Origin: Holosporales bacterium
GTDB lineage: Bacteria; Pseudomonadota; Alphaproteobacteria; JAJTHO01
Reading direction: 5' to 3'
DNA length: 64,000 nt
NCBI GenBank assembly: GCA_046318675.1
Contig: JBKCUA010000033.1
Span: forward strand, 2,858 to 66,857
The stretch's first letter is position 1. Each line of letters begins with the position of its first letter. Below are positions 6,399 through 44,513 of this stretch, piece by piece. The notes under the pieces were generated by a model. That model saw only the letters and a program-made list of their open reading frames with translations. It did no database searches and had not been told where the DNA came from. The translations under genes and the position numbers were made by a program.

Positions 6399-7498
6399 GC
6401 CCACGTCCCCCGGCGTAAAAACGATATGCCCCACCACAAAGGCATCAATACCAATGCATATTGCAATACGGCCAAGCCCCAAGCCCACGCTGATAAACTC
6501 TCTGAAAGCAGAAGCATAGCCTGTAACGCTACTACTACCCCCGCCGCTATCATTAAGGCTCGCCCCATGCCGCGCCGATTATGCCCAGCACCACTAAGCA
6601 CGGCTAGAACCATTGCAGTCATCGCTAATGGCAACAATGGGCTTATCAAGCGGCTGTGCCCAGCTGCTCGTAATTTGCCACGCCGCCGCGGATCATTTTC
6701 CTTTGCTGCTTGGGAGAACAAATCAACGACTGTTATTTCCTGAACTTCCGCACCACGATTAACCGTTGCGGAAATCAATGAACTCAAATCCAAAATATAT
6801 TCAGAAAAATACAAGAACTGTACCCGCCCCGTCGCTGCATCGAGTTCTTGACGACTTCCGTTTTCAATGCGCAACAATGGCTTTCGATTTTCATCAATCC
6901 AAAGCCTAGCCCGACTTGCTAAAATAATCATTGGACGCTCCGGATTACGGCGATCATCAAGCATAAGACCAAGCAATTCCCCTTGTGCCCCCCGGTGAGC
7001 CGTAAACACTGTTATTCCTTCACCAATTTTATTAAAGGTACCTTCTTCAATAAACGCAGCACCGATATCGGTTCGCAGCGCAGATTCCAAATTCTTGAAA
7101 GAACTATAACTTAAAGGTAAAATAACCAAAGATAATAAATAGCATATCCCACAAACCCCGGTTGCCAACAACAACAATGGCTTCGCAATCTGCCATGGGC
7201 TACGCCCAGCAGCACTGAAAATTACCCATTCAGCATCAGCGATCAACCGATGCACCAACCACACAACAGATAATGCCAGTGCTAACGGCAAAACCAACAA
7301 AAAAAATCCCGGCAACAATAACAGCATGAGTAGAAGAAAAAGCTGCAAAGGTGCGCCGCGATTAACCACCAGATCGACCAGCCGCAATGACTGAGCCAAC
7401 AGCACAATCGCCACCAGCGTTACTGTCACCAGCAACAAGACCAAGCCCGCTTGGCGGAACAAATATTGATTCAGGCGCAACTTCGCCCTCCTAAGCAT
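6389..7498 (-). CDS. lptF: LPS export permease LptF (YjgP/YjgQ family)
   Basis: 369 aa paralogue of downstream ORF, N-terminal MLRRAKLRLNQYLFRQ typical of LptF/G; ATG (7496-7498) overlaps dnaA stop (7498-7500) by 1 nt. Confidence 0.7.
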   Translation of the reverse strand: MLRRAKLRLNQYLFRQAGLVLLLVTVTLVAIVLLAQSLRLVDLVVNRGAPLQLFLLLMLLLLPGFFLLVLPLALALSVVWLVHRLIADAEWVIFSAAGRSPWQIAKPLLLLATGVCGICYLLSLVILPLSYSSFKNLESALRTDIGAAFIEEGTFNKIGEGITVFTAHRGAQGELLGLMLDDRRNPERPMIILASRARLWIDENRKPLLRIENGSRQELDAATGRVQFLYFSEYILDLSSLISATVNRGAEVQEITVVDLFSQAAKENDPRRRGKLRAAGHSRLISPLLPLAMTAMVLAVLSGAGHNRRGMGRALMIAAGVVVALQAMLLLSESLSAWAWGLAVLQYALVLMPLWWGISFLRRGTWALW

Positions 7499-8865: not shown

Positions 8866-8927
8866 AAGCCTCCCCAGATGAAAAAACAGCTGAGTTTGTG
8901 TATTATAAAGTTTTTTAAATCTAAAAA

Positions 8928-9194
8928 TTATCCAGCGATTTTCTTTAATCGCTTGGCCAGCCGGGAAACGGTACGACTGGCGGTATTGCCATGCAACACT
9001 CCCTTGGTCACGCCACGATGAATTTCTGGCTGAGCTTCCCTCAATGCTGCCGTCGCCGCTTGTACATCACCAGTATTCAGTGCCGCTTCAACTTTGCGAA
9101 TGAAGGTACGAACGCGGCTCAATCGGGCGCGATTAGCTTCCGTCCGAATAGCGGTAGTACGAATGCGTTTTTGGGCGGAAATATGCTGAGCCAT
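8928..9194 (-). CDS. rpsT: 30S ribosomal protein S20
   Basis: 88 aa, [13 protein letters not shown]... highly conserved bS20 sequence; rpsT-dnaA order typical of Alphaproteobacteria. Confidence 0.9.
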
Positions 9195-9239
9195 AAAAAT
9201 TCACCTAAACTATAGTTTACGTCGGACATGTACGCTACC

Positions 9240-9248
9240 TGTGGATAA
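9240..9248. promoter_or_regulatory. consensus DnaA box (TGTGGATAA = reverse complement of TTATCCACA) in rpsT/hupB divergent intergenic region
   Basis: perfect 9-mer read directly; lies about 45 nt upstream of rpsT start, in position to autoregulate the rpsT-dnaA transcript. Confidence 0.5.
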
Positions 9249-9486
9249 CTTAGGCGTCAAGTTCCTTTTTCATGGCTGTTCATGTCAGGCGCGCCCTAGC
9301 TTGAAAAGCCATAATAAAAAGCATTCTAGAGTGTGGCAGAAAATCATCATCATCAAAAAATATAAGAAAAAAGCCGTTTTTCAGTTGACGCAAAAATATT
9401 AATGCTTATGGATTGGCTTAAATAAGCCATTTTTAGGCCAACAAGGTCTGCAAAGCGGCGGATTCCAACCAACTGGAGAAAACCTT

Positions 9487-9765
9487 ATGAACAAAAATGA
9501 ACTCATTGGCGCGATTGCCGACCATTCCGGTCTCAGCAAGGCCGATACTACACGCGCCCTCGACGCGGCGCTAGAAATCATCAGCAAAACCCTCCGCAAA
9601 GGCGGCGACGTTCGCCTTGTCGGCTTTGGCACCTTCCTCGTTACCAAACGCCAAGCCACCGAAGGTCGTAACCCCCGCACGGGTCAAAAAATCAAGATTG
9701 CAGCCTCAACCCAGCCGAAATTCCGCGCTGGAAAAAGCCTGAAAGACCTCGTTAACAAAAAGTAA
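9487..9765 (+). CDS. hupB: DNA-binding protein HU
   Basis: 92 aa; MNKNELIGAIAD...GFGTF...RNPRTGQKIKI canonical HU/IHF fold signature. Confidence 0.88.
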   Translation: MNKNELIGAIADHSGLSKADTTRALDAALEIISKTLRKGGDVRLVGFGTFLVTKRQATEGRNPRTGQKIKIAASTQPKFRAGKSLKDLVNKK

Positions 9766-9781
9766 TCTCTAAAAATACCCT

Positions 9782-9818
9782 AAAAAACGGCTTTCGTTCT
9801 ACGCGGAGGCCGTTTTTT
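9782..9818 (+). terminator. Rho-independent terminator downstream of hupB
   Basis: aaaaaacggc ... gccgtttttt inverted repeat (6-10 bp stem) followed by T-run, 17 nt after hupB stop. Confidence 0.5.
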
Positions 9819-10046
9819 GATTGTGCAAAAAACTAACGGCCCTGGGGTTGGGCATCACCTATGAACAGCTCACCTCCGACCTGACAGGCGTCAACTATTA
9901 CAGCATCCAGACAATGCTGAAAAAAGGGGGTCAAAAAATCCGCCCGATCCTGTCTCTCGCTTTTTAAACGCGGCTTACGTACTCTCCGACGATGCTTTGC
10001 TAAAACTCAAAGCCTTCACCCTCTATGGTTCCGCTTAAACTGATGG

Positions 10047-11126
10047 GTGGTAAGTATGTCTTTCTTAATGATAGCAATATCCATTGTCTCTGCCCCTATC
10101 CCATTTTACAATAACGGGGCGATGTCCTCCGTTTTTCTCCCTCCTCTTGCCCTGACCGCCGGTGAACCCGCCGGGATTGCCGCTGAGATTACCGTGCGGG
10201 CGTGGTTGGGGCGTGATCGCTTGCCGGTGCCGTTTTATATTGTTGCGGATGCGGATCATATAAAGGAAACTGCGGCGCGACTGCGGTTAAGCGTGCCCAT
10301 TGCGCGTATTACCGACCCGCATCAGACAACAATGGTCTTTCCCAGCGCTCTACCGGTACTGCACCAGCCGTTGGCCGTCCCTGTGACCCCGGGGGTGCTT
10401 GAACCCGCCAATGCCCCCGCTGTGCTGGCAAGTTTGCAGACGGCCCTCGCGGCGGTGCAGGGCGGCACGGCAAGTGCGCTGGTCACCAATCCGATTCATA
10501 AGGGCACATTGTATGCTGCTGGGTTTTCGTATGATGGGCATACGGAGTATTTGGAGGCGCATACATACACGCCTTTGGCAGTGATGATGCTGGCCTGTCC
10601 ATCGCTGCGGGTGGTGCCATTGACGATTCATAAGTCGTTGCGTCAGGCGATTGAGCACGTTGCGCCGCACCGCATTATTGCCACGGTGCGGGTGATGGTG
10701 TCTGGCCTCCGCGAGTATTGGGGCATCGCTCGGCCCCGGATTGCGGTGGCGGGGCTTAATCCCCATGCCGGGGAGGGAGGTACCATGGGGGATGAAGAAA
10801 TACGGTGTATTGTTCCTGCGCTGGAGGCTTTGCGTGAGGAAGGGATTGATGTGCAGGGACCGTTTGCTGCCGATGGGTTGTTTCATGAGCAGGCGCGGGG
10901 GAGCTATGATGCGGCTTTATGTATGTATCATGATCAGGCGTTGATCCCTATTAAGACGCTGGATTTTTGGGGTGCGGTGAACATTACCTTGGGTCTGCCC
11001 ATTATTCGCACCTCGCCGGATCACGGCACGGCGTTGTCCTTGGCAGCGGTAGGCGGGGCGCGACCCAACAGCTTGCTCGCGGCGTTGACGCTGGCGGGGG
11101 AGCTGGCTCTAAAACGTGTTGGATAA
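10047..11126 (+). CDS. pdxA: 4-hydroxythreonine-4-phosphate dehydrogenase PdxA
   Basis: TAGEPAGIAAE N-terminal motif, NPHAGEGG, HDQALIPIK motifs; likely true start ATG 10122 (MSSVFLPP...). Confidence 0.85.
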   Translation: MVSMSFLMIAISIVSAPIPFYNNGAMSSVFLPPLALTAGEPAGIAAEITVRAWLGRDRLPVPFYIVADADHIKETAARLRLSVPIARITDPHQTTMVFPSALPVLHQPLAVPVTPGVLEPANAPAVLASLQTALAAVQGGTASALVTNPIHKGTLYAAGFSYDGHTEYLEAHTYTPLAVMMLACPSLRVVPLTIHKSLRQAIEHVAPHRIIATVRVMVSGLREYWGIARPRIAVAGLNPHAGEGGTMGDEEIRCIVPALEALREEGIDVQGPFAADGLFHEQARGSYDAALCMYHDQALIPIKTLDFWGAVNITLGLPIIRTSPDHGTALSLAAVGGARPNSLLAALTLAGELALKRVG

Positions 11127-11937
11127 TAGTGCGATTTTGGCGTTGCCGCCGCTGCGGGAGGTTATCGGTGCGGCAAAGCTCTCGGCGGATAAACGTCTGG
11201 GGCAGAATTTCCTCATGGATATCAACCTGACCCGCAAGATTGCCCGGCAGGTAGGGCAGGGTGGTATCATTCTCGAGATTGGCCCTGGGCCTGGCGGCCT
11301 TACTAGAGCCTTGTTGTTGGAGCATTGTGTCCCTGTGGTCGCGGTTGAAAAAGACCCGCGCGCCGTGGCGGCGTTACAGCCGTTGGTGCAGGCTGCCGCC
11401 GGGAGGCTGACGGTCATCGAGGGCGACGCGCTGGAGTTGGACGTGCTTGGTTTTGCGCCGCCGCCGTTGTGGGTGGCGGGAAACCTTCCTTACAATGTGG
11501 GGACAGCGATTGTCCTGCAGCTTTTTCAACAGATACATCGTGTCGCCGGGATGGCACTGATGTTTCAGCGGGAGGTAGCCGAGCGCCTCGCGGCAAAGCC
11601 CAGCACCCCCGCGTACGGCCGGCTTTCGGTGGTGGCGCAGGCTCTATGCCGGGTGGAGAAATGCTTTGATCTGCCCTCCAGTGCCTTTGTGCCGCCCCCA
11701 TCCATTGTCAGCCGGGTGGTGCGCCTCATCCCCCACGCGGATGCAGCGGTGGTGCCGCTGGAGGCGTTGGCAACCCTTACCAAGGCCGCCTTTGGCCAGC
11801 GGCGCAAGATGCTGCGCCGGAGTTTGGAGCCATTGTTGCCGCGCCTGCCGCCGCTGGAGGACGCCTTTTTGCAGCAGCGGGCGGAAGACGTGACGGTGGC
11901 ACAATACGTGGCGTTGGCGCGGAAGCTTATTATTTAA
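11116..11937 (+). CDS. rsmA: 16S rRNA (adenine1518/1519-N6)-dimethyltransferase RsmA/KsgA
   Basis: 273 aa; LGQNFLMD motif, SAM-binding EIGPGPGGLT; follows pdxA as in the conserved pdxA-ksgA pair. Confidence 0.88.
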   Translation: MLDNSAILALPPLREVIGAAKLSADKRLGQNFLMDINLTRKIARQVGQGGIILEIGPGPGGLTRALLLEHCVPVVAVEKDPRAVAALQPLVQAAAGRLTVIEGDALELDVLGFAPPPLWVAGNLPYNVGTAIVLQLFQQIHRVAGMALMFQREVAERLAAKPSTPAYGRLSVVAQALCRVEKCFDLPSSAFVPPPSIVSRVVRLIPHADAAVVPLEALATLTKAAFGQRRKMLRRSLEPLLPRLPPLEDAFLQQRAEDVTVAQYVALARKLII

Positions 11938-13870
11938 ACCCTAAAGCACTGGCGATGCCTTTCACCGCGCCTCCTACGGCATCGGAGCCAGCTTTTGCCG
12001 CCGCCGTTGATCCTGTTGCTCTGGTCGCATTGGCAGCTTGTTCCAGCATTTGTGCCGCCTGTCCGGCGACGTTGGTATCCATCCGGCCGGCATCGCTCGT
12101 GGTTTGCGGGTTGACAAAGGCATCGGCGATCTGACCTGTTGCCTTGATGAGCATATTGCTGGTTATACCAATGAAGATGAGTTGAAGCCAGACATCGGTG
12201 CCAAGGGCGTTTTTGGATGGGGTAGTGTTAATAGCGTCCACCGCGCCACTGGTCAGGCCGATAATGGCCGCCTGTATCACCAGTTCTGTGGAGCTTTGGA
12301 TCATGCCTTTGAGGGCGGTGGTGGTGATAGAACGCAGGCCAGGCAGGACAAACGCGGCAATAATCAGGGGGCTAAGCATAGCCAGCAACAGCCAGCGGAT
12401 AATTACATCGGCGGCCTGGAGCGGGAAAAGCAAATACATCTTACCGAAAAACCATAGTATTGGGGCGGCACTGAGAATCATCATAATCAAACCAACAGGA
12501 CTGGTCCATGATCCATCCCACAAGGTTTGCAGAGCCTGCATCAACACCCCGCCGATGCTGCGCTGCATGGCACCGAGGAGACAGGCAGCCGACTTGGCCA
12601 TGGCTTTTCCATCGGCACTGGCACTGTTGAGGTTGCCGCAGAATTCGGAGACAACGCCGCTCATCCCCGTACCTTCCGAGGCGGTGTTTGTTATTATCCC
12701 GGCGGTTTGCATACCCGAGACGACGATGGGCGCATACACATAATGCCAGAAATTTGCAAAACTGCCCAGGAACAAACCCACAAGGAACACGATGCCCATA
12801 CGGCTGACCACCATGTTGTTGAGGTTGTTCATCTGTGCCATGGGGGTAAAGGGGGTGTAGATGCGGGCGACGTGAAATAAACTCCACACTACGGCAAAAA
12901 TGCCCAGCAGGCCGAGCATGGCATTTTGCAGGGCTTTGAAAACCTTCTGGCCATACGTATCACTAATCTCAAGAAGTTTGGCGATCACCTCGCATCCCAT
13001 GCAAGCCTGGATTAAATCTTCGACGGCTAATGATTTTTTGAGTTTATCTATGCTTTTACCAAGTGCTTTCTGGCTGGCACTTTGGGGGTCGTTCATGCCG
13101 CTGCCGGTGGTGGTGCTGGCTTCGCCCCGCTGTTTGGTCAGATCAAGGGCGCAGGCGGCGACCCCTTGTTTTTTTAAACCGGCCAAGGTGGCGGCATCGC
13201 TTTTGGGAAGTTTTTTGATGTCCTCGCTGCTGAGAGTGTTGTTAATAAGATTATCACACGTGATCATATCCTTACAAAAATGGACGGCGGCGGCACCGAT
13301 AGGATCGCGGGCTTGCAGGAAATCCGTGGGGTTAGTAGCGCAGCCGGGCACCGCAAGGTTGACATAGCTTTCTAAGGCTTGCTGTGCGCTGGATGTTTTA
13401 TCAAAAACAGCTTTGCAGGTGGGATCAACCCGGGCATTGCGAATGGCGAAGGTGAGCTTGCTGGCGCACTCGGCGGCGTTGGCCGGGGTTGATGCCGCGG
13501 GCAACGATTTGGCATCGGCAGAAGCCCCCAATTTTTCAGCAACAACTTTTTTGACATCAGGATCGGGATCGTAGTCCTCAATGACAGGGCCGTATTGTGG
13601 GGTTTTCTGCATACCACCAGTCCCGCACTGATTGGAGCGATAATAAACATTTTTGGCTACGTCTTCAGCTTGGGTACGCAGGAGAGCGGCTTTTTTCGGG
13701 TCTGTACTCTGCAAGGCATTGATTTGAGCATTGATACTTTGCTTGATTTTATTATTACATTGTGTGAGGCCTTGCCCCTCTAACCTCCCCGGTTCGGCCA
13801 GGGCGGGCAGGGCACCCAATAGGATAAAAACAGTTAATAAAACGCGGATCATTAGCTCTTTTTCTCCCAC
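11930..13870 (-). CDS. polytopic membrane protein, VirB6/TrbL-like topology (paralogue A; Cys-rich periplasmic N-domain)
   Basis: 646 aa; signal peptide; roughly 300-aa hydrophilic Cys-rich domain; 6 predicted TM helices; hydrophilic Ala/Gly-rich C-tail; shares CxxC...YGxK.F, FW(H/R)YVY.P.VV and LSP motifs with the two upstream ORFs. Confidence 0.4.
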   Translation of the reverse strand: MGEKELMIRVLLTVFILLGALPALAEPGRLEGQGLTQCNNKIKQSINAQINALQSTDPKKAALLRTQAEDVAKNVYYRSNQCGTGGMQKTPQYGPVIEDYDPDPDVKKVVAEKLGASADAKSLPAASTPANAAECASKLTFAIRNARVDPTCKAVFDKTSSAQQALESYVNLAVPGCATNPTDFLQARDPIGAAAVHFCKDMITCDNLINNTLSSEDIKKLPKSDAATLAGLKKQGVAACALDLTKQRGEASTTTGSGMNDPQSASQKALGKSIDKLKKSLAVEDLIQACMGCEVIAKLLEISDTYGQKVFKALQNAMLGLLGIFAVVWSLFHVARIYTPFTPMAQMNNLNNMVVSRMGIVFLVGLFLGSFANFWHYVYAPIVVSGMQTAGIITNTASEGTGMSGVVSEFCGNLNSASADGKAMAKSAACLLGAMQRSIGGVLMQALQTLWDGSWTSPVGLIMMILSAAPILWFFGKMYLLFPLQAADVIIRWLLLAMLSPLIIAAFVLPGLRSITTTALKGMIQSSTELVIQAAIIGLTSGAVDAINTTPSKNALGTDVWLQLIFIGITSNMLIKATGQIADAFVNPQTTSDAGRMDTNVAGQAAQMLEQAANATRATGSTAAAKAGSDAVGGAVKGIASALGFK

Positions 13871-15189
13871 GGAATATTAAATTTTGGTTGGGGTATGTTG
13901 GGGTTTTTGAGCATCTCGGTGACGGTGGGGATACGTTGGCTGATTTGTGAACGGAGTTTTGTACCAATGGCCGCCGGATCCTGGGCAAAGGGGAGCAGGT
14001 TTTGCAGTTGTTTGCGGGTGCTATTGAAGTTGTTACCGATGCTTTTGCCAAGGCGTTCAAAAATTTGCATGGCAAACATTGGCATACGCATGGTTGCCGG
14101 GACTTGGGTGATCTGGTTACTCCAACCCGAAGTTTGCTTTAAAACGGCACCAGTAGCAATATATAATGCCAACAGACGCCAGTAATCAGGCGATAAAATA
14201 CCGTTCTGTAGGGAAAGCCCGGCAACATTGGTGGCATTACCCATATCCAGAACATTTTTAACAATCACCATAAAGACAGCAATCACCCCGCCGGTGAGCA
14301 TGATGTTAATCCCCGACGCAAACAACACCTTGACGGCCAGCGTCGTAATCTGACGGGAAATGGGAAAGATAAACGATAAGGCCAGTACAGGGCTTAAAAT
14401 CGTTATTATCGTTAAATTAATAAGAATGTCCACCACTCGGGCAATGATGAGGAGCAGCAGCGGTGCGGCCGCCGCAATCAACCCCAGCCCTGCCGTCCAG
14501 CGCAGCAGAGACTGACCCCCGCCGCCAACCGTCGCATCCATGTAGCTGACCGTTTCGTTGCCTTTCCACAGATCGTGGCCGAGCTTGATGCCCATGCCCA
14601 GGACGCGCTGCATGATTTCCACGTTGCAGAGAAATTTCTGGGTGGCGTCGCTGCTGACACTGCCGGGGGAAGAGGCGGGAGGAGTGCAGGTGGTGATTTC
14701 CTTATTGCCAACGTATCGGGCGGCGTTGTTGATATAGGCTTGGCTGACTTTACTGCCGACGCTGACGATCATGTCCTGAATGCGCCAGAACAGTTGATAG
14801 TTTTGCACAAGGCCGATGACAATCATGGTTAAGATAAGCTGTTTCACCAGACCGTTGAGCACCTTGGGGGCTTCCTGTCCGCCAAAGGGGCTGAACAGTT
14901 GCCCCGCCTGAAACAGGAACCAGAGGGCTAAAAAGATGCTCAACGGGGTGGCAATCTGCCCGGCGATGAGTTCAAAGGCGCGCTTGCCGTAATCCTGACG
15001 CACGTCGTCCATAAGCTGGAGCAGGGAACACACCCAGCAGGTGCTGTACCAGTCGTCTTTGGTCGGGATCGTCAGCTTGCCGGAGGGGGAAGAGACGGTG
15101 GCCGAATCACCAGCAGCAGCCGGAGCAGGCGTCTGCGCGGCGGCAGGCACGGCAAAAAACAAGAGTAAAAAGAGGAGGAGCGCGCGCAT
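13852..15189 (-). CDS. polytopic membrane protein, VirB6/TrbL-like topology (paralogue B)
   Basis: 445 aa; signal peptide, CWVCSLL...YGKRAF motif, 5-6 TM helices, hydrophilic C-tail; 19-nt overlap with downstream paralogue, 1-nt overlap with upstream ORF. Confidence 0.4.
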   Translation of the reverse strand: MRALLLFLLLFFAVPAAAQTPAPAAAGDSATVSSPSGKLTIPTKDDWYSTCWVCSLLQLMDDVRQDYGKRAFELIAGQIATPLSIFLALWFLFQAGQLFSPFGGQEAPKVLNGLVKQLILTMIVIGLVQNYQLFWRIQDMIVSVGSKVSQAYINNAARYVGNKEITTCTPPASSPGSVSSDATQKFLCNVEIMQRVLGMGIKLGHDLWKGNETVSYMDATVGGGGQSLLRWTAGLGLIAAAAPLLLLIIARVVDILINLTIITILSPVLALSFIFPISRQITTLAVKVLFASGINIMLTGGVIAVFMVIVKNVLDMGNATNVAGLSLQNGILSPDYWRLLALYIATGAVLKQTSGWSNQITQVPATMRMPMFAMQIFERLGKSIGNNFNSTRKQLQNLLPFAQDPAAIGTKLRSQISQRIPTVTEMLKNPNIPQPKFNIPWEKKS

Positions 15190-18100
15190 TAGTTTATTCC
15201 CATTTTTTCGAGTTTTTCTCGAACACCGTCATTCCATTCTTTTTTGGATTCTTCTTTTTTTGCGGCTCTGGCGGCAATTTCTTCTTCTTTTTTAATAATT
15301 TTGTCAGATGCCTGATCTAAATATCTCCTGGCGAAGGTGTCGTATGTTTTAATGGCAGTCTGGACATCGAGTTTTTCTTGGGTGTAGAGCTCTGCCTGTT
15401 TCTCGTTGAGGCGGAGTATTTCTGCTTTAACCTCCGTTTTTTCCCAGCTTAATTTGCTGATCTCTTTGGCAATCTGCGTCGTCATGTTGGCGGGAAGGCC
15501 AGCGGCCAGCATGGCGGTGTTCTCGCGCAGTTTTTTCTCAATGTCGTTGAGGCGGGCGTCGTTAAGGCGGATGCGGTCGCTAAGTTCTTCGTGTTTTTTG
15601 TTATACTCTTCACGGATATCGTTGCGTTTCAGGTCGCCTTTGCCTTCATAGTCTTTCTGGGCGGTTTGAAGAATAGCTTGTTTTTTATCATGGTATTCGT
15701 TGATGTTGCGTATTTTATCGTCACGCTCGCTCATCATGCGGGTAATTTCTTCTTGCCCACTGCGAAGAATAACCTGCCGCAAGGCGCGAATGTCGCCGAG
15801 TTCTTTGGCAATATCGGCGGCGGGGGTTGTAGTGTCTTTACGCAACACATCCTCGCGTTTTTTGAGATCGGCCAGCTCTTGTTTAACGGTATTTTTCATG
15901 TCCTCGATGTTCTTATCCACGTTGCTTAGTGCCTGGTGCCGCTGGGCTTCGTTAGTCATTTCGGCGTGCTTGAGATCAACCATGCGGGAAAGGTTGCCGG
16001 ACCCTCTATTGGCAAGGGTTGCGCCTATTGTGCCACCCCTAAAAAATCCTTCGGCGACGTTAGAAAGTCCGGTGGCATCGGCCATAGTTGTTACAACTGT
16101 TCTCGGTGCGGCGATAATCACTGCGCCAAGGGTAGTAGCAGTAGTTGTTAAAGCCCATTTTCCGATTTCCATTGGTGCATTTTTTATATCATCAATGATC
16201 CGGTCTCTTGTGCCTTTGGCGATTTCACCCAAAGCATTGGTAACCCGATCTGTTGTATCTTTGATGGGTTGCGGGATGGCATCACCGACTTGACCGCTAA
16301 CGGTAGCGACACGTTCACGAACATCACGCAGCAAATTATCAAAGTCTTTTTTAAGGCTTTGAAAATCTTTGTATGGTTCCCGGGTAAAATTGTTGGTGCT
16401 TAAAAAATTGTTCACCCATTCTAAGAATTTTTCAGGCATTTGCATGGTTCCGGTGACAACATATTGCCGGGCGGCTTCTAGATACTGTAGGCCTGAATAG
16501 AGCGCGTCGGATACTTTACCGATATTGCTTGCAGTGCCAGTGGCGAGCCATTGGGCGTTATGTATGGTGCCATTAACAAGCCAAGCAGCACCGCTTCCAA
16601 CGCCTTGCAGCACATTTAAGGTGACGTTAAGAATTTGGTTGTCAACGCGCATTTTGTCGAGTCCTTGTGTAATGCGTCCCCCTAAATCATTCAGGCCATT
16701 GAGTGCATTTTGGCTTAATCTTCCGAGATCATTAAGTCTATCACCCATATACCCCCCCACCGCTCCCCCCACCGCCCCGGCACCGTCTTTGAGTGCATCC
16801 ATCCCTTTTGCCACCAGCTCATTGTTGGCGAGGGCGTTCAACGCGCCTTTGCCGGCAAAGCCGCCAAGGAACCCGGCTACCCCCGCGCCGGCATTCACGA
16901 AAGGAGTGAAGGCAGCACCCATTCCCCCTAACGCCCCGCCAAATGCGCCGAAAAGAGTATCCGTTGTTGTCCTTGCTAAGACGAGGCCTTGTTTAGCTAT
17001 CCAAGGGCCAAAAATCAGCAGCCACGTCGCCGCCATGGCAAAGGTGAGGATGGGCTGTCCAGATTGGCTGCTGCCCTGACCTGAAGCAATCGTGGCGTTG
17101 GGCACGGGTTGGCCGTTGAGGTAGGGGATAGGATCAACAGGATTTCCGCTATAGGGGTTGCTTTCGTCACCACCAAGGCGTAGTTCAAAATGCAGGTGAG
17201 GTCCGGTGGAACCACCCGTGTTGCCAACGTGGGCAATAATCATGCTGACATCCACCTGCTGGCCTTTAGTAACAAAAATTTTATCAAGATGCGCGTAAGC
17301 GGTATTATATCCACCATCGGGGTGATGAATGACGACGAGGTTCCCATACCCCCCTGTACCATTATCATCGGCTTTAATGACAACCCCCGGGGCGGCCGGT
17401 GTAACAGGTGCTCCGATAGGACAGGCGAAATCCACCCCTGCATGTAATTTCATTATACCTTTTATAGGATGCTTTCGCATACCATAACGACTACCTTTAC
17501 CGCCTATGGAGCAAGTACCACCTTGAGTAACTAATTTTATGGGATAGCGCAAACTGCCGTTAAAGGAGGGGGTGCTGCCGCCTTGGGTGGGATCAACGCT
17601 GGTGGTGCTAGCTAGGGGATCGTGGCGGACGTAGCTGCTCAGGGTTTTTGTGGTCGTGGCTGGTGGTGCTGTGGGCGTGTTGCCCTGCATCGCTCCTTGC
17701 ACTGCCGTTGCCGCTGTGCTGGCCGCCCCGGCGACGGCACTGCCTGCTTTGTTCATGCCGGCCTGGACGGTTTTGACGGCTTCTTGAATCACCCCGGCGG
17801 AGAGGACGGCGACAACTGAGACAACGGATAGGGTTAATCCTGCCTCCAGCAACCCTTTAAATCCCGTGTTGGCGTAGTTGCGGGTGGCGGGAAAACAGTA
17901 ACAGCCGATCAGCGCCGGGGACAGGCATGAAATGATCACCCAGCGCATCAGGGCATCAAGGATCATCACCGCAAAGGTTATCGGCGGGGTTATGCTGACA
18001 ACAAACACAATCACGCCGATAAGGAGGTTGTTGGCATTGGCACCAGTTTGGGTGATCATGTACCATCCGGTGGCAATGCCATAGCTGAAGGCGTTTTGAA

Positions 18101-18803
18101 AGCTGTGTACCATGCATTCGAGGCGGTATTGCAGTGAGCGTTCCTCTTCGCTTAGGCCACTGATGACGGTTTTGCTGCACTTATTGCCGTCTTTGAGGGT
18201 GAAGGTATCAACGGTGTATTGGCCGTTTTGCCCTTTGGTGCCCTCGGTCAGCAGGGCGTTGGACATATTAATAGAGATATTGACCACGGGCTTGTAAATA
18301 TACCGCCAATACAAATCATACGACGTCGGAGCCAAAAGAATAATCGAGACGGTGAGCACCAGTGCGCCCTTGGTGAACAGGGTGCTGGCAATGGCGTTGG
18401 TGCGGTTGGCCGGAGCAAAGGGGAGCAGCATTTTGGCCACCTGCACCAACGTCCACAGAACAAAGGCCACGCTCAAGAATGTTGCCACGCCCGATCCGAA
18501 CATGGGCAGCAGTATTTTGCCGTACTGCATGGAGGCGGCGAACAGGCGGCTGATAATACCGCAGGAAAGACATACTCCCGAAAACCAGTTCATGGTGTCG
18601 GTAATGGCGGCAGAGGAGGAGGTCGCAGAGGATGTGCTCTTGGCGGCGGGGGGTGTTGCGGTTGGGGGTGTCGTCGTTGTGGTAGCTGTCGCCGCCGGTG
18701 GAGTACTGCCCGTCGCCATAGCGGGAGACACCCCGCAAACCAGCAGACCAAGCCCCAAAAGGAGCACACCAAAAAAACCAGAACGGGTAAAATACCTCGG
18801 CAA
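15189..18803 (-). CDS. VirB6/TrbL-like membrane domain fused to M23 (LytM) peptidase domain, Gly-rich segment and long C-terminal coiled coil
   Basis: 1204 aa, TTG start with AGGGG SD; N-terminal signal peptide + Thr/Pro-rich stretch + TM bundle homologous to paralogues A/B (VCLSCGI...YGKILLP); M23 motifs HAGVD and HLHFE (about 17110-17470); Gly-rich repeats; last roughly 260 aa heptad-rich charged coiled coil. Confidence 0.55.
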   Translation of the reverse strand: MPRYFTRSGFFGVLLLGLGLLVCGVSPAMATGSTPPAATATTTTTPPTATPPAAKSTSSATSSSAAITDTMNWFSGVCLSCGIISRLFAASMQYGKILLPMFGSGVATFLSVAFVLWTLVQVAKMLLPFAPANRTNAIASTLFTKGALVLTVSIILLAPTSYDLYWRYIYKPVVNISINMSNALLTEGTKGQNGQYTVDTFTLKDGNKCSKTVISGLSEEERSLQYRLECMVHSFQNAFSYGIATGWYMITQTGANANNLLIGVIVFVVSITPPITFAVMILDALMRWVIISCLSPALIGCYCFPATRNYANTGFKGLLEAGLTLSVVSVVAVLSAGVIQEAVKTVQAGMNKAGSAVAGAASTAATAVQGAMQGNTPTAPPATTTKTLSSYVRHDPLASTTSVDPTQGGSTPSFNGSLRYPIKLVTQGGTCSIGGKGSRYGMRKHPIKGIMKLHAGVDFACPIGAPVTPAAPGVVIKADDNGTGGYGNLVVIHHPDGGYNTAYAHLDKIFVTKGQQVDVSMIIAHVGNTGGSTGPHLHFELRLGGDESNPYSGNPVDPIPYLNGQPVPNATIASGQGSSQSGQPILTFAMAATWLLIFGPWIAKQGLVLARTTTDTLFGAFGGALGGMGAAFTPFVNAGAGVAGFLGGFAGKGALNALANNELVAKGMDALKDGAGAVGGAVGGYMGDRLNDLGRLSQNALNGLNDLGGRITQGLDKMRVDNQILNVTLNVLQGVGSGAAWLVNGTIHNAQWLATGTASNIGKVSDALYSGLQYLEAARQYVVTGTMQMPEKFLEWVNNFLSTNNFTREPYKDFQSLKKDFDNLLRDVRERVATVSGQVGDAIPQPIKDTTDRVTNALGEIAKGTRDRIIDDIKNAPMEIGKWALTTTATTLGAVIIAAPRTVVTTMADATGLSNVAEGFFRGGTIGATLANRGSGNLSRMVDLKHAEMTNEAQRHQALSNVDKNIEDMKNTVKQELADLKKREDVLRKDTTTPAADIAKELGDIRALRQVILRSGQEEITRMMSERDDKIRNINEYHDKKQAILQTAQKDYEGKGDLKRNDIREEYNKKHEELSDRIRLNDARLNDIEKKLRENTAMLAAGLPANMTTQIAKEISKLSWEKTEVKAEILRLNEKQAELYTQEKLDVQTAIKTYDTFARRYLDQASDKIIKKEEEIAARAAKKEESKKEWNDGVREKLEKMGIN

Positions 18804-18879
18804 CCAAAACCCCTGCTGTTTACACTTTATTAATATCTAGCAGGGAATTTAGAATAATGCATCAAAAAAGTGATAAGAA

Positions 18880-19731
18880 TCACTTTTTCTGGGTGATCTT
18901 TTTGTCGAGAAAGGTTAGAAGTCTTTTGCAGGCGTGCTCAAGGGTTGTGATCACTTGGCGCAGGCGGAAAAAATCATAGCCATGCACCACGGCCCAAAAT
19001 GCGCCCACCAGCCATAGAATAATAAGCAGTACAGCCGTCAGAGCATATTGATTGGGAATGGTATAAGCACCATAGTACGCTCGACTCAGCGCGTTCCAGT
19101 ACCGATCATCAAAAATATTGAATCCTTTTAAAAAAGCATAGGCACAGAAAAAAGCGGTCAGCAGCCAAACCCCCGTCCACGCGGCCACGCCCAAAAAGCT
19201 ATGAATTACAAACGTGATGGGTTTGCCCACCCGCCGCCACACTGGCGCGAGCAGGCGCGCCAAAAGCTTGAGGATAGTATGCAGCGGATGGCGGGACGGC
19301 GCGGGATCGGGACGTTGGGACAGCGGCGGCGGCACTATCGGCGCAAAAGGGGGCGGCGGCGGAGGTGGTGTCGGTGTTGGGGGGGGCGGAGGAGGCGGAG
19401 GCGCGCTGGGTTTTACCTCTGTTTTAACATCGCTTTTAGGAGCCACTTCCTTTTCCAGGCGGCGTTTTTCCAAAAAGCGCGCCAGTTGCGCCGAGGGGGA
19501 ATCGTCGTCGTTTTCTTTTGTTTCCGGCTCTTTTTCTTCTGGTTTTTTGGGTGCGGCTTTGGGGGCTGGCGGCGGGGGAGGCGGAGTTGGCTCAGGCTTT
19601 TTAGCTTGTTTTTTTTGCTCTTTTTGTTGTCCTGCGGCCTCACGTTTTTCGAGGCGTTGCTTTTCCATGCTGGCGCGCAGACGTTTGGCCAGGGGCGATT
19701 CGTCGTCAGGGGCTGGGGTGTCGTCGGCCAC
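18880..19731 (-). CDS. proline-rich membrane protein with internal duplication (hypothetical)
   Basis: 283 aa, GTG start 22 nt after lpxB stop; two repeats of [S-P-x-A-x-R-L/F...EKR.LEK...polyPro]; two C-terminal TM helices. Confidence 0.45.
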   Translation of the reverse strand: MADDTPAPDDESPLAKRLRASMEKQRLEKREAAGQQKEQKKQAKKPEPTPPPPPPAPKAAPKKPEEKEPETKENDDDSPSAQLARFLEKRRLEKEVAPKSDVKTEVKPSAPPPPPPPPTPTPPPPPPPFAPIVPPPLSQRPDPAPSRHPLHTILKLLARLLAPVWRRVGKPITFVIHSFLGVAAWTGVWLLTAFFCAYAFLKGFNIFDDRYWNALSRAYYGAYTIPNQYALTAVLLIILWLVGAFWAVVHGYDFFRLRQVITTLEHACKRLLTFLDKKITQKK

Positions 19732-19753: not shown

Positions 19754-20896
19754 CTAATGCACAAGGCTTAGCAAAACCTTAGCGGCGGCGTGCCCGGCGC
19801 TGGGGCTGCCTGCAGGGGGGCGCAATTTGGCCAACGCCGGGGTAACGGCGGCAGAGAACGCCTTTTTATGGCCAAACGTCTGGGTTACGGCCTCGGCCAG
19901 GGCTTGCGGCGTGGCGGCGTCTTGCAAATATTCCGGGATAACAGCCTTGTTCTCCAAAATATTAACAAGAGAGGCAAAACGAATGGTAATCAGGCGTTTG
20001 GCAATTTGGTGGGTGAGGGGATGAACGCGGTAAGCGACCACGTGGGGCGTGCCGGCGGCGGCGAGTTCCACGCTGACCGTGCCGGAGGCGGCGAGGGCAA
20101 CATCGGCCGCACGGTACAGCGGCACCCGGTAGTGACTATCCGTTACAATCCTTACGGCAAGCCGGGACTTCCTTACGATGGCGTGGACTGTGTCGGCAAG
20201 AAACGGCACGGTCATCAGGGCAAGCTGGGTATCGGGGTGGTGCTGCTGCACGCGCCGGGCGGCGTTAAGAAATAGGGGCAACAGGCGGGTTACTTCCCCC
20301 CGGCGGCTACCGGGCAGGAGCAGCAGTAAAGGCTTTTCCTTGTTTATTGCACAATCGGAATAAATATTTTTTTGTTCTGCTGTTGCATTGTAGCGTTCGA
20401 GAATAGGATGACCCACAAAGGTGCTGGCCAGGCCGTGCTTTTCAAAAAGAGGCGGCTCAAAAGGCAGCAAACAGAGCAGGTGATCATAAATCGCCGCCAT
20501 GGTCGCCGCCCGGCCCGGCTTCCACGCCCACACCGACGGCGCGACGAGATGCACCAGCTTCCCGTGCCATTTTCCCTGCTCCCTGGCGACATGGAGACGG
20601 CGCGCCAGCCGGGCATTAAACCCTGGCGCATCAATGGTGCAAACGATATTGGGTTGCGCCTCTAGCACAGCGGCTACCGTCTCTTTCAGGCGTCGAAACA
20701 GCCGTGGTAAGCGCGGCAGCACTTCGACCAACCCCATGACCGCCAGATCGTGGAGAGGAAAGAGGGATGCTAGCCCCGCCGCTTGCATCTCTTCCCCCCC
20801 GATGCCTGAAACGGCGGTGCCCGGCGGCAGGGCCTTGATGACCGCCGCGCCCAAGGCATCGCCGGAGGGTTCGCCCGCACTGAAAAAAATCTTCAT
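19754..20896 (-). CDS. lpxB: lipid-A-disaccharide synthase
   Basis: 380 aa; MKIFFSAGEPSGDALGA N-terminus and GT-B fold characteristic of LpxB; position after lpxI. Confidence 0.85.
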   Translation of the reverse strand: MKIFFSAGEPSGDALGAAVIKALPPGTAVSGIGGEEMQAAGLASLFPLHDLAVMGLVEVLPRLPRLFRRLKETVAAVLEAQPNIVCTIDAPGFNARLARRLHVAREQGKWHGKLVHLVAPSVWAWKPGRAATMAAIYDHLLCLLPFEPPLFEKHGLASTFVGHPILERYNATAEQKNIYSDCAINKEKPLLLLLPGSRRGEVTRLLPLFLNAARRVQQHHPDTQLALMTVPFLADTVHAIVRKSRLAVRIVTDSHYRVPLYRAADVALAASGTVSVELAAAGTPHVVAYRVHPLTHQIAKRLITIRFASLVNILENKAVIPEYLQDAATPQALAEAVTQTFGHKKAFSAAVTPALAKLRPPAGSPSAGHAAAKVLLSLVH

Positions 20897-21717
20897 GAGC
20901 TAGGCACCCCGCAGAGAAATAGCCCTGCTGCATCGGCGGCGGCAATGGCTTCTTCTTGTTGCAGCAGTAAGGTTTCCCCGGCACCGCCAGCAATCCCGGC
21001 AAAACCAGCGGCGGCGGCTTTGTGCATCGTATCAAGACCCAAGGCCGGCATATCCGCCCGGCGTTCCTGACCGGGTTTGGCGGTCTTGATGAGAATCATT
21101 TGGCCTTGGTAATCAAAGCCCGCCGCCCGTTCCAGCAGCGCATCGGTGCCGCCGATGTCTTCTACTGCCAGCACACGGCCTTCCGCCACCACCACCGCTT
21201 GGCCGAGATCGAGGGGGGCTAGCTGGTGCAGGGCGGCAAGACCCACAGCGATGCTGTCCCGTTCGGCGTTGGTGGGGTGACGCCGGGTCAGGCAGCGTTG
21301 AGGCAGTAACACCCCGCCCAGAATCTCGTGGGCACCCACCACGCCAAAGCCTTCTTCTTCTAAGAAACGGATGACCGCTTTCAGTAGGCCGTCGTCGCCC
21401 CGGCTGATGCCCATGCGAGCCAGCAGGCGCAGCCCTGCCGCATCCGGCGCAAGCTGGAGCAACGGCGGGCGGCGTATCTGCCCGGCCAGGACAATGTGGG
21501 TGACCCCGGCGGCCTTGAACGCGGCCAAACTAGCCCCGACGGCCCCCAACCGGCCAATGTGGTGGGGCCGCCCGGTAAGCAGGGCTGGATCGGTTTGCTC
21601 GCTAAACCCTAGGATGTAATATGGTATGTTATGTGATTCAAAGTAGTGTATCAGCAAGACAGGCAACGCGCCGCGCCCGGCGATGAGGCCATACACCCTA
21701 GGCGGCATCGCTGGCAA
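20893..21717 (-). CDS. lpxI: UDP-2,3-diacylglucosamine diphosphatase LpxI (DUF1009)
   Basis: 274 aa between lpxA and lpxB as in alphaproteobacterial lipid A clusters; N-terminal GLIAGRGALP motif. Confidence 0.6.
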   Translation of the reverse strand: MPAMPPRVYGLIAGRGALPVLLIHYFESHNIPYYILGFSEQTDPALLTGRPHHIGRLGAVGASLAAFKAAGVTHIVLAGQIRRPPLLQLAPDAAGLRLLARMGISRGDDGLLKAVIRFLEEEGFGVVGAHEILGGVLLPQRCLTRRHPTNAERDSIAVGLAALHQLAPLDLGQAVVVAEGRVLAVEDIGGTDALLERAAGFDYQGQMILIKTAKPGQERRADMPALGLDTMHKAAAAGFAGIAGGAGETLLLQQEEAIAAADAAGLFLCGVPSS

Positions 21718-22516
21718 AGCTGGTGCTGGTGGCGGGGCGACAGAGCTGGCGGCTGCCCCTTGTGTTGAGGAAGGCGACTAAGTCTTGCACGGCGGTGCTG
21801 GGATTATTGCGTAATTTTTCCAAGGCTTCGGCCACGGTGGTGGTGTCGTTAAACAGGCCCTGCAAGGCGTGGCGCAGGGCGTGGATATCGTCCCTTGCAA
21901 AGCCGCGACGTTTGAGGCCGACGATGTTAAGACCCGCGAGGTGCGCCCGCTCGCCCATGACGGTGGCAAAGGGCAGGACATCATGCTCCACCCCGGAAAG
22001 GCCGCCGATCATGGCGTGTTTGCCAATACGGACAAATTGATGAACGGCGGCAAGGCCGCCAATAATGGCATGCTCACCCACTTCAACGTGGCCGGCGAGG
22101 GTGGCGTTGTTGGCCATAATAACGTTATCACTGACGATGCAATCGTGGGCAACGTGTACCCCGACCATGAGTAGGCAGTGATTACCAACTTTCGTCACCA
22201 ACCCCCCGCCAGCGGTTCCGGCATGGACGGTGGCGTGCTCACGAATGGTGGTGTGGTGGCCGATTTCAACACGGGAAGGCTCGCCTTTGTATTTTAAATC
22301 TTGGGGCACGAGGCCGATAGTGGCAAAGGGAAAAACCGTGCTGTGGGCAGCGATGCTGGTGGTGCCGCTGATAACTGCGTGGGAATGAATCGTGACGTGA
22401 TCGCCGAGGGTGATATTCCCCTCAAGAACGCTGTATGCACCAACGTGGACATCTTGGCCTAGAACAACGTCCTTGCCAATAATAGCGGTAGGGTGGATTA
22501 GGGGTGTGTCAGACAT
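21698..22516 (-). CDS. lpxA: acyl-ACP--UDP-GlcNAc O-acyltransferase
   Basis: 272 aa; left-handed beta-helix hexapeptide repeats, IHPTAIIG start, LpxA C-terminal helical domain. Confidence 0.88.
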   Translation of the reverse strand: MSDTPLIHPTAIIGKDVVLGQDVHVGAYSVLEGNITLGDHVTIHSHAVISGTTSIAAHSTVFPFATIGLVPQDLKYKGEPSRVEIGHHTTIREHATVHAGTAGGGLVTKVGNHCLLMVGVHVAHDCIVSDNVIMANNATLAGHVEVGEHAIIGGLAAVHQFVRIGKHAMIGGLSGVEHDVLPFATVMGERAHLAGLNIVGLKRRGFARDDIHALRHALQGLFNDTTTVAEALEKLRNNPSTAVQDLVAFLNTRGSRQLCRPATSTSFASDAA

Positions 22517-22997
22517 CCATGATCATCGCGGTAAAGATGGCTTCCGCGCAGACTTTCCCGTCCACGATAGCTTCGCCTGCAAAACGAAAGACATTGCGGC
22601 GGCCATGTTGTTTGGTGACGTGCAGTTGAATTTGATCCCCGGGGGAGACAGGCTTGCGGAATTTGGCCTCATCAATACCCATGAAATAGACAAGTTTCCC
22701 CTGCGCCTTGGTGCCAAGGGAATGGACGACAACAATCCCGGCGGTTTGGGCGAGAGCCTCAACGATAAGCACGCCGGGCATGACGGGACGTTCGGGGAAA
22801 TGCCCGGTGAAGAAATGCTCATTAATCGAGACATTTTTAAAGCCGATGGCGCGTTCGCCGACGCTGAGGATGCGAATACGCTCCAGCAACAGCATAGGGT
22901 AACGGTGGGGAATCATGGCCATGATGCCGTTGACGTCAATCTCAATAGGGGGAATCGTCAGGGCATCAGTGCCGATAGTCAGGGTGTTGTCAGTCAT
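22509..22997 (-). CDS. fabZ: 3-hydroxyacyl-ACP dehydratase FabZ
   Basis: 162 aa; hotdog fold motifs [27 protein letters not shown]. Confidence 0.9.
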
Positions 22998-24022
22998 TCC
23001 GTTGCTGTTCCTTTGCCAGCTGCTGCCCGTTTGAGGTAGGCAACCTGGCGAAAAAATTCCTTAAGGGGTTGAGCGGGGCTTCCCCCAACGCCGCCGCCGG
23101 GGGGAATGTCCCGCATGACGCCGCTGGAGGCAGCGATGCGGGCACCGTTACCAACTTTTATATGCCCGGTCAACCCGGACTGGCCGCCGATTTGGACATA
23201 TTGGCCGATTTCCGTGCTACCGGAGATACCGACTTGAGCCACCACAATAGACCCCCGGCCAATGCGAACGTTGTGGGCGATTTGCACGAGGTTATCGATC
23301 ATCACCCCGTCTTCAATGATGGTATCAGGGCCTGCGCCGCGATCGACGGTGGTGTTCGCGCCGATTTCCACGTCGTTGCCGATGATGACCCGGCCCAGCT
23401 GCGGCACTTTTACCGGGCGTTCTGGGTCAAAGGCAAAGCCGAAGCCCGGCTGGCCGATGCGGGCGCCGGGGTAGATGACGGTGCGATGGCCAATGTGGGC
23501 GTACTCAATGCTGGCGTGGGTACCAACAGTGCACTCATCGCCGAGGGTTACCCCGTCGCCCAGCACGGCATGGGGGTTGAGGCGACAGCTGCTCCCTATC
23601 TGTACGTTCTTGCCAATAACTACCCCGGCGGCGATGTGGCAGTTGGCGCCGATGCTGGCGGTGGGATCAATAATGGCGGTGGGGTGAATAAAGGCCGTTG
23701 CTGCTGGTGCGGGGTAGAAGTATTGCGCGATGCGGGCATAGGCCTTGTAAGGGTTGGGGACAACAAGGGCGACGGTGCCGGCGGGGCACAGGGGGGCTAA
23801 CGCCGCGGTCACCAAACACGCGCCGGCTTTGGTGGTGGTAAAGGCGTCTTTGTACTTGGGGTTGTCAAAAAAGCTGATGTCGCGTGCCGTTGCCGTGTGC
23901 AGCGGCGCCACGTCGTGGATCAGGCGATCCGCTGCTTCGGTGGGGAGGGGTGCGCCCACCAACGCTGCCAGCGTCGCCAGCGGGGCAGGGATCGGAGTGG
24001 TAAAAAAACGCGCATCGGCCAT
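22994..24022 (-). CDS. lpxD: UDP-3-O-acylglucosamine N-acyltransferase
   Basis: hexapeptide-repeat LpxD; six-frame ORF extends to 24118 but MADARFFT... (24022) matches LpxD N-termini. Confidence 0.85.
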
Positions 24023-24156
24023 GGTGCTGCGTGTATAGGCGAAAACGGGGCGGGGGTGCAAAGGGCAAAAGAGGGAATTGTTGTGCGGCAGCGATGGGGC
24101 ATAAAAAAACCTCCCCAAGGGGGGAGGAAAAAACGGAAGGTTTTTATTGGATGGGA

Positions 24157-44506: not shown

Positions 44507-44513
44507 GACCACC

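Follow-up and report, generated by a model that had tools for sequence, protein, structure and literature searches.

The locus examined here raises the question of what a chromosomal set of VirB6-like membrane proteins might do at the end of a lipid A operon. Among the components of T4SS, VirB6 is one of the most poorly understood and, to our knowledge, is known only within complete secretion machines. The window is the whole stretch of DNA that was analysed, 64,000 nucleotides of a 131-kb contig from a Holosporales MAG. An earlier note on this DNA had given coordinates and junctions for a four-gene module, all of which check out on the ORF list, and the identities that it gave to lpxD, fabZ, lpxA, lpxI, lpxB, pdxA and rsmA are borne out by NCBIfam. 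The M23 hydrolase domain, the exchange of the cassette that contains it and the large VirB6 clade described below were absent from that note, and together they have changed the view of the most likely role of the module.

Organization of the locus

The module consists of four genes, designated ORFs X, a, b and c, in the following arrangement.

19754..24118, (-), lpxD-fabZ-lpxA-lpxI-lpxB, the context upstream of the module, from NCBIfam equivalog matches
19754-20896, (-), lpxB
18880..19731, (-), ORF X, 283 aa, GTG start, from the ORF list
18804..18889, (-), X-a junction with two hairpins, from RNA folding and conservation
about 18864-18889, (-), hairpin 1, which overlaps the stop codon of ORF X
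about 18804-18852, (-), hairpin 2
15189..18803, (-), ORF a, 1204 aa, TTG start
13852..15189, (-), ORF b, 445 aa
11930..13870, (-), ORF c, 646 aa
11116-11937, convergent to ORF c, rsmA

ORF X begins 22 nt after the lpxB stop and is separated by 76 nt from ORF a, the stop of which is overlapped by the start of ORF b by 1 nt. The 19-nt overlap of ORFs b and c given in the earlier note holds if ORF c starts at GTG, but the orthologue in the related locus L001 is called from MIRVLL, equivalent to the ATG at 13852, and this start would leave a 1-nt overlap like that between a and b. As had been claimed, rsmA converges on the last gene with overlapping stop codons, the overlap being 8 nt. Genes lptD/F/G, lptB and surA are also found in the neighborhood of the module.

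The hairpin previously noted in the 76-nt gap is present, and is one of two. Hairpin 1 resembles a terminator, its 11-bp stem being followed by a run of U residues, and the putative Shine-Dalgarno sequence upstream of ORF a falls within the 3' arm of hairpin 2. The predicted fold has a minimum free energy of -30.2 kcal/mol (z -3.2; 0 of 200 shuffled sequences were equally stable), and both stems are kept in the close relatives L001, L004 and L011, while in L003 only part of hairpin 1 is recognizable. The co-transcription of the module with the lipid A genes that the earlier note inferred is not supported here, and the conserved terminator-like hairpin lies between X and a.

The N-terminal part of ORF X (NCBI entry MFN7902556.1, hypothetical) carries a conserved ESPLAKRLRAS motif; the protein also contains extended Pro-rich tracts, and two to three hydrophobic helices make up its C-terminal domain (HxxLGVAAWTGV ... 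LWLVG..WA..HGYDFFRLR). Its orthologues, which were aligned, lie between lpxB and ORF a in loci L001-L005 and L011. It has no match in Pfam, NCBIfam or PHROG, and its candidacy as a VirB3 was rejected at an hhalign probability of 0.4%.

VirB6-like proteins and the hydrolase cassette

In T4SS, the stalk rests on a pentameric inner-membrane base formed by VirB6/TrwI. ORFs a, b and c share 21-25% identity, and the paralogy that had been claimed for them is confirmed by BLASTP at values of 1e-9 or better, far beyond chance (b versus a, 3e-13; c versus a, 4e-21; c versus b, 1e-9). The CxxC, YG(K/Q), FW.Y.Y.P and LSP motifs listed in the earlier note are present in all three, and alignment shows them to be invariant across the orthologues. 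By sequence and by predicted fold, all three are homologues of the VirB6/TrbL family, an assignment already made in that note and upheld here by Pfam (for a and b), a family profile and a fold comparison. Against the Pfam TrbL/VirB6 model (PF04610; gathering cut-off, 25.9 bits), ORF a scores 44.5 bits (2e-11), its core alone 48.8 bits (9.5e-13) and ORF b 29.4 bits (8.6e-7); ORF c has no direct match to this model and is linked to VirB6 through its paralogy to a. The family HMM matches ORF b at 6.9e-96 and covers residues 77-368 of ORF a. Canonical Agrobacterium VirB6, used as a tblastn query, matches the core of ORF a (3e-6), and the profile of the clade described below matches the same protein with an hhalign probability of 93.5% (E 2.3e-7) and by HMM at 1.4e-6. 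An AlphaFold model of ORF c, made from an alignment of 123 family sequences, served for the fold comparison and has the VirB6 fold seen in TrwI of plasmid R388 (reference structures PDB 7O3V, 8RT9 and 8RTD). The family profile matched TrwI alone in a search of PDB sequences, with an E value (0.13) that is not significant by itself, and the same search with a narrow profile returned nothing. The model of ORF b, from a 10-sequence alignment, had a pLDDT of 45.6 and was left out of the fold search.

ORF b (MFN7902554.1, hypothetical) comprises a signal peptide, a CWVC motif, a VirB6-like core and a short tail. ORF c has a signal peptide and a Cys-rich helical periplasmic N-domain of ~255 residues that precedes its core. 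ORF a, annotated by NCBI as a "peptidoglycan DD-metalloendopeptidase family protein" (MFN7902555.1; orthologues P0001-P0007), is more elaborate and comprises, in order, a signal peptide, a periplasmic CxxC segment, a VirB6/TrbL core, a peptidoglycan-hydrolase cassette, one more TM helix and a Gly-rich, mosaic, coiled-coil tail of ~600 residues. The regions discussed below are as follows.

17688..18596, (-), VirB6-like core of ORF a, about residues 70-372, from alignment, family HMM and tblastn
17050..17678, (-), exchangeable cassette of ORF a, residues 376-584, with no nucleotide similarity to locus L011
17154-17447, (-), Peptidase_M23 domain of ORF a, residues 453-550 (Pfam PF01551, 101.7 bits, E 2.6e-29)
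16027..16735, (-), second swapped block, in the tail of ORF a, residues 690-925, a blastn gap between the window and L011
about 12101-13024, (-), VirB6-fold core of ORF c, residues 283-590

The core of ORF a contains the motifs CxxC, YGK, PF.P, YWRYIYKPVV, D..MRW, LSP and FPATR together with two loop cysteines. A topology with a periplasmic N terminus and large loop, five TM helices and a cytoplasmic C terminus is predicted, and fits the hydropathy, the helices in the model of c and the positive-inside rule, all of which place the cassette in the last periplasmic loop; by hydropathy and the c model, it fills the whole loop between TM helices 4 and 5. The translation retains the zinc ligands of an M23 enzyme, HxxxD (HAGVD) and HxH (HLH), and NCBIfam gives MepM/ShyA-like matches for the domain. 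In the sister strain represented by L011, which is 96-98.6% identical in DNA across the region and 96.5-97.2% identical in the flanks of the cassette, an NlpC/P60 domain takes the place of M23, and the gene neighbors in the two strains are identical. The sequences show that ORF a carries an intact M23 endopeptidase and that strains otherwise nearly identical exchange it as a cassette. The second swapped block occurs in two allelic types that assort independently of the species backbone (P0001-P0005).

Conservation of the module and its clade

The order lpxB-X-a-b-c is kept in six related loci (L001, L002, L003, L004, L005 and L011), down to 37-48% identity, all six have the upstream lpxD-fabZ-lpxA-lpxI-lpxB genes in unchanged order, and the a-b-c trio is conserved in five; in L003, b is fused to a c-type protein in a single ORF of 844 residues. 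Distant relatives, on a handful of contigs, have an a-b pair beside gpmI/purL or fliP, without lpx genes. The linkage to lpx genes is specific to one lineage. It is a narrow one, with two loci in a scan of contigs from 185,579 species genomes, and two scans of metagenome contigs gave no relative. The module is also present on a 1.87-Mb contig (ERZ25039505 contig_11935). Module proteins are 66-81% identical, as compared with 84-93% for the products of flanking housekeeping genes.

The three proteins belong to a large chromosomal VirB6 clade, which comprises at least 1019 clusters at 50% identity, nearly all made up of unnamed metagenomic proteins. The clade was seen by exhaustive HMMER search, whereas a word-indexed protein search gave only the close lineage. 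It is marked by a CWxC motif and, in addition, by a pair of conserved loop cysteines, and 38 of 70 members match Pfam TrbL. Other members carry M23, NlpC/P60, YkuD, VgrG3-like_C or Tlde1 domains; where mapped, the hydrolase domains are in the TM4-TM5 loop or in a periplasmic N-terminal extension and not at a C-terminal end. One member that lacks a fused hydrolase is encoded next to an SLT gene. Plasmid searches by tblastn with the core of ORF a and two clade members as queries gave marginal or no matches; the two clade members gave none in 72,556 plasmids.

The reported absence of VirB3/4/8-11/D4 within 64 kb is confirmed and extends 10 kb to each side: no other T4SS gene is present in the ~84 kb covered, and VirB1-5 and VirB7-11/D4 are missing from the window, its 10-kb flanks and loci L001-L013. 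A HerA/DUF87 ATPase at 39459-41141 was considered as a hidden VirB4 and rejected, its similarity being only at the level of the P-loop. The earlier statement that this is not a described arrangement agrees with the literature, in which no description of one was found. A review of the Holosporales names T6SS, which its members commonly carry, and not T4SS, as the conserved secretion system of the order (PMC11909080).

Proposed role and relationship to known systems

The trio, together with X, may represent an undescribed envelope device downstream of the lipid A genes. The reading that we favor, with a probability of roughly 0.45, is that a, b and c form a hetero-oligomeric VirB6-type inner-membrane platform that has its own wall-opening enzyme and lies outside a canonical T4SS operon. 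The three proteins would co-assemble as one ring or platform, as suggested by the tight a/b and b/c overlaps, the retention of the trio in five loci, the b-c fusion in L003 and the distant a-b pairs, and disulfides may brace their periplasmic segments. The hydrolase, predicted to lie in the final periplasmic loop of a, would cut the sacculus locally, like a built-in VirB1, and so let the N-domain of c and other periplasmic parts cross the wall; its role as part of the machine is suggested by the intact M23 motifs, the filling of the TM4-TM5 loop by the cassette, the placement of hydrolases across the clade and the neighboring SLT gene. The long tail of a could be a cytoplasmic docking arm, but its mosaic character is more easily explained if it is exposed, which counts against this view. 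The device is most likely a T4SS-independent or loosely T4SS-linked envelope structure; its position outside a virB operon is indicated by the lack of T4SS genes in ~84 kb and in the related loci, the lack of plasmid matches for two clade members and the prominence of T6SS in the order (PMC11909080). We propose that in this lineage the module has joined the lipid A operon as a passenger and relies on it for expression. That no ATPase or outer-membrane partner for the platform was identified counts against this reading.

The same VirB6 fold and family membership would be expected if the module supplied the membrane portion of a dispersed, rvh-like T4SS, with VirB4, VirB8-11 and VirD4 encoded elsewhere, the paralogues equivalent to the VirB6 array of Rickettsiales and the hydrolase replacing VirB1. 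In Rickettsia, VirB6 is represented by five tandem paralogues that are enlarged and very divergent, and the T4SS is distributed over five islets (PMC2653234). T4SS machines need a wall-cutting enzyme, which M23 or NlpC/P60 could supply. However, the Rickettsiales array is always accompanied by virB3-virB4 (PMC2653234), neither of which occurs in any independent context here, and with no plasmid matches for the clade members compared and no T4SS among the conserved systems of Holosporales (PMC11909080), we consider this explanation rather unlikely. The swapping of a cassette between strains that are 96-98.6% identical, the mosaic tail of ORF a, the overlap of the domain repertoire with T6SS antibacterial effectors and the frequency of T6SS in Holosporales (PMC11909080) would also suit a polymorphic toxin-like system, in which variable peptidoglycan-degrading domains are weapons against neighbors and the VirB6-like core is their carrier or translocon. 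Polymorphic toxins have a C-terminal variable domain and an adjacent immunity gene, whereas the domain here is internal or N-terminal and TM-flanked in a polytopic protein with a signal peptide, with no releasable C-terminal tip, and the partner proteins b and c do not vary but are conserved. No small immunity-like gene co-varies with the cassette, the neighbors being the same in the M23 and NlpC/P60 strains, and a toxin-immunity function therefore ranks as improbable.

A housekeeping function in envelope biogenesis, in which the VirB6-like proteins would share regulation with the lpx genes and serve lipid A/LPS assembly as a conduit for lipid or LPS-related material, appears very doubtful. 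It would account for the start of X only 22 nt past lpxB, the conserved gene order in six loci and the nearby lptD/F/G, lptB and surA, but the distant a-b pairs are not beside lpx genes, a terminator-like hairpin separates X from a, and the module evolves faster than its flanks and is confined to a narrow lineage.

Extending the platform reading to the whole CWxC clade is more tentative. The clade might represent a T4SS-independent envelope apparatus, a hetero-oligomeric VirB6-fold platform with an interchangeable peptidoglycan-cutting module, which uncultured and probably host-associated Alphaproteobacteria would have adapted from an ancestral secretion system to serve a new function. If the clade is chromosomal, ATPase-free and disulfide-braced, with swappable hydrolases, the VirB6 platform would be usable alone or in an unrecognized machine, and the Holosporales, whose host-interaction machinery is poorly known, would have a new candidate envelope structure. 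Its genes are now annotated as "hypothetical" or "DD-metalloendopeptidase", so that the family is invisible to surveys of secretion systems.

As compared with TrwI/VirB6, the module is chromosomal, is not surrounded by VirB2-5 or VirB7-11/D4 genes, has three divergent paralogues in place of one gene and includes a peptidoglycan hydrolase inserted in a loop and a tail of ~600 residues; relative to canonical Agrobacterium VirB6 it adds a signal peptide, a CWxC segment and two conserved loop cysteines. TraG of the F plasmid, encoded in a full conjugation operon, also combines a polytopic VirB6-like N-terminal part with a large extra domain, which is not known to be a peptidoglycan hydrolase. VirB1 is an SLT domain, and the Gram-positive T4SS hydrolases of the PrgK/TcpG type carry M23/LytM, CHAP or NlpC/P60 domains. 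As in these systems, a dedicated wall-cutting enzyme would accompany a trans-envelope machine, with M23 and NlpC/P60 interchangeable, but in the module the enzyme is built into a VirB6 paralogue and swapped as a cassette within one species. The likeness to tandem, enlarged Rickettsiales paralogues drawn in the earlier note stands, since the array (1204, 445 and 646 residues) is comparable with RvhB6a-e of Rickettsia, which are 674-1154 residues long and in tandem in a T4SS spread over five islets (PMC2653234). Both groups comprise highly divergent paralogues of about 450-1200 residues with variable flanks and occur in host-associated alphaproteobacterial lineages with a scattered gene layout. 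In contrast, the Rickettsiales arrays directly follow rvhB3-rvhB4 in islet A (PMC2653234), whereas the module follows lpxB and X in a member of an order with T6SS, not T4SS, as its conserved system (PMC11909080), and no hydrolase fusion is reported in rvh, where VirB1 is a separate lytic transglycosylase.

Gene layout and VirB6 identity of the module

The ORFs, strands, and junctions proposed in the earlier note agree with the ORF list and with translation, and its naming of the lpx genes, pdxA, and rsmA was confirmed, the identities of lpxD, fabZ, lpxA, lpxI, lpxB, pdxA, and rsmA all being backed by NCBIfam. The four ORFs that follow lpxB, here called the module, are arranged as listed.

ORFs of the module and the preceding gene (window coordinates)
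ends at 19754, lpxB
18880-19731, minus strand, ORF X, 283 aa, start 22 nt after the lpxB stop
15189-18803, minus strand, ORF a, 1204 aa, preceded by a 76-nt gap after X
13852-15189, minus strand, ORF b, 445 aa, 1-nt overlap with ORF a
11930-13870, minus strand, ORF c, 646 aa, end reaching 8 nt into the convergent rsmA

The overlap between b and c is also 1 nt if c begins at the ATG at 13852, the start called for the orthologue in the related locus L001. The gap between X and a contains the hairpin that had been described and a second one (MFE -30.2 kcal/mol, z -3.2); both are kept in close relatives and, in part, in locus L003, and the sequence of hairpin 1 looks like that of an intrinsic terminator. 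The proteins themselves are deposited in NCBI as MFN7902554-6, encoded on a 130,997-bp contig of a Holosporales MAG and labeled "hypothetical" or "peptidoglycan DD-metalloendopeptidase family protein."

As claimed, the three large proteins of the module are paralogous (BLASTP E values of 3e-13, 4e-21, and 1e-9), and the motifs reported for them are genuine and invariant among aligned orthologues. Their VirB6 identity is affirmed. Against the Pfam TrbL profile (cut-off 25.9 bits), a scores 44.5-48.8 bits and b 29.4 bits; the family profile aligns over 217 columns with a VirB6 from a canonical Agrobacterium virB operon (probability 93.5%, E 2.3e-7), and a local HMM also matches this Agrobacterium protein (1.4e-6). 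With 123 family sequences as input, AlphaFold gave a model of c in which pLDDT is 91-97 over the core. Residues 458-498 of c, which are two helices by hydropathy, form one long helix in this model, so that five membrane passes would remain. Hydropathy and the helices of the model together predict a periplasmic N terminus, five passes, a big periplasmic loop, and a cytoplasmic C terminus, a prediction consistent with the topology of Agrobacterium VirB6.

The peptidoglycan hydrolase cassette of ORF a

Not noticed in the earlier note is an M23 peptidoglycan endopeptidase domain in ORF a (residues 453-550, E 2.6e-29), in which the HxxxD and HxH motifs are intact. With five passes, the M23 cassette would occupy the final periplasmic loop, which joins helices 4 and 5; in a-type proteins the family HMM finds the last helix again, weakly, C-terminal to the cassette. 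The window and locus L011 belong to one species (96-98.6% nucleotide identity across 21 kb), and within the module the two differ in two blocks, both confined to gene a.

Blocks of gene a exchanged between the window and L011
17050-17678, minus strand, residues 376-584, the entire loop including M23; an unrelated NlpC/P60 block in L011
16027-16735, minus strand, residues 690-925, tail; another allele in L011

In two independent assemblies (a-orthologues P0003 and P0005; locus L002 10001-13459), the M23 domain is split, the HxxxD half preceding the VirB6 core and the HxH half following helix 4; both sites are predicted to be periplasmic. Pfam domains found across 70 members of the larger family containing a, b, and c (the CWxC clade) include M23 (7), YkuD (2), VgrG3-like_C (1), and Tlde1 (1). 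Mapped hydrolase-type domains are situated in the loop or a periplasmic N-terminal extension, never at a free C terminus, and one member without a fused enzyme is adjoined by an SLT transglycosylase gene. The tails of a (15192-17006) and of its relatives P0002, P0005, and P0070 are Gly-rich and then helical. Weak, sub-threshold matches of a-type tails to perilipin, apolipophorin-III, and coiled-coil families hint that these helices may be amphipathic and membrane-binding.

Conservation and genomic setting

Six loci of related MAGs share the order lpxB-X-a-b-c, and their a proteins have 37-78% identity to that of the window. Only two loci were found among 185,579 species genomes searched, so the lineage is narrow. 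Identities of module proteins and housekeeping neighbors are 66-81% and 84-93%, respectively, relative to L001, and 41-48% and 58-64% relative to L003; by these comparisons the module proteins diverge faster than their neighbors, yet are clearly maintained. In L003 (7061-9595), the b-type and c-type proteins are fused into a single 844-aa ORF that has a signal-peptide-like segment in its interior, a hint that b and c act together.

When 1.84 billion representatives were searched exhaustively with HMMER, 1019 clusters matched at E ≤ 1e-3, and 52 of them reached E ≤ 1e-30. The clade pattern is CWxC ... PFGP ... W.Y..P ... C ... C....Q ... D...R ... LSP..AA..FP.TR, with four cysteine positions kept in at least 90% of members. 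Nearly all members are without a name in cluster look-ups, and the two tested had no plasmid relatives.

Several features of the surroundings were also recorded. The cumulative GC skew is lowest near 8-10 kb, next to dnaA, and 7498-10047 is probably the replication origin; an origin there would place the module just 2-10 kb away from it.

Features near the putative origin
7498-8865, minus strand, dnaA
8928-9765, small ORFs of 88-93 aa; L011 equivalents called ribosomal protein S20 and HU-like DNA-binding protein

A 541-548-aa ORF of unassigned function lies upstream of lpxD in L011 (2116-3741) and L001, and at the corresponding position L004 has a 544-aa ORF, comparable in size; the window lacks this ORF, with about 420 nt of unrelated sequence instead (24071-24494). 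A complete chemotaxis cluster (42382-51736; MCPs, cheB, cheD, cheR, cheW, and cheA) and a G+C content of about 50% suggest that this member of the Holosporales is less reduced and may be motile.

Possible roles and comparison with known T4SS

The claim that the 64 kb hold no other T4SS genes was upheld by negative Pfam and NCBIfam scans of the entire window. T4SS partner genes are also absent from the gene lists 10 kb past each window end, and in a tblastn search with a canonical VirB1-B11 set only VirB6-like genes of the window and related loci were matched. X was considered as VirB3 and rejected. A 560-aa HerA/DUF87-type ATPase is encoded between pyrH and a DnaJ-domain gene (39459-41141, minus strand); it has a weak TrwB_AAD_bind match, resembles VirB4 at the P-loop level only, and from its sequence is probably unrelated to the module.

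In the reading that we favor, with a probability of about 0.45, a, b, and c would assemble as one VirB6-type hetero-oligomeric platform in the inner membrane. Its own hydrolase would open the cell wall locally, in the way that VirB1 serves T4SS, and the platform would work outside a canonical virB operon. A polymorphic peptidoglycan-toxin system is improbable; the neighboring genes are the same in the window and L011, so no immunity-like gene moves with the cassette. A housekeeping role linked to lipid A or LPS is also quite unlikely. For the distant a-type proteins P0039 and P0040, encoded amid unrelated housekeeping genes, one beside fliP and the other beside gpmI/purL on a 1.87-Mb contig, a b-type gene comes next, and neither lpx nor T4SS genes occur within 10 kb of these pairs; the a-b pair thus appears to be the conserved unit and the lpx linkage to be particular to the Holosporales lineage studied here.

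A more serious, if still doubtful, alternative is that the module supplies the membrane component of an rvh-like T4SS with dispersed genes. The conserved Holosporales secretion system is, according to a recent review, the T6SS and not a T4SS (PMC11909080). A literature search found no description of VirB6-hydrolase fusions or of orphan VirB6 arrays, in line with the earlier view that the arrangement is not a described one; the platform proposed here would be categorically new only if the module is shown to be independent of a T4SS. A parallel is Rickettsia, which has tandem, enlarged VirB6 paralogues and a T4SS scattered in islets (PMC2653234). However, whereas the module is without such neighbors in every context examined here, the Rickettsia array is never parted from virB3-virB4 (PMC2653234).
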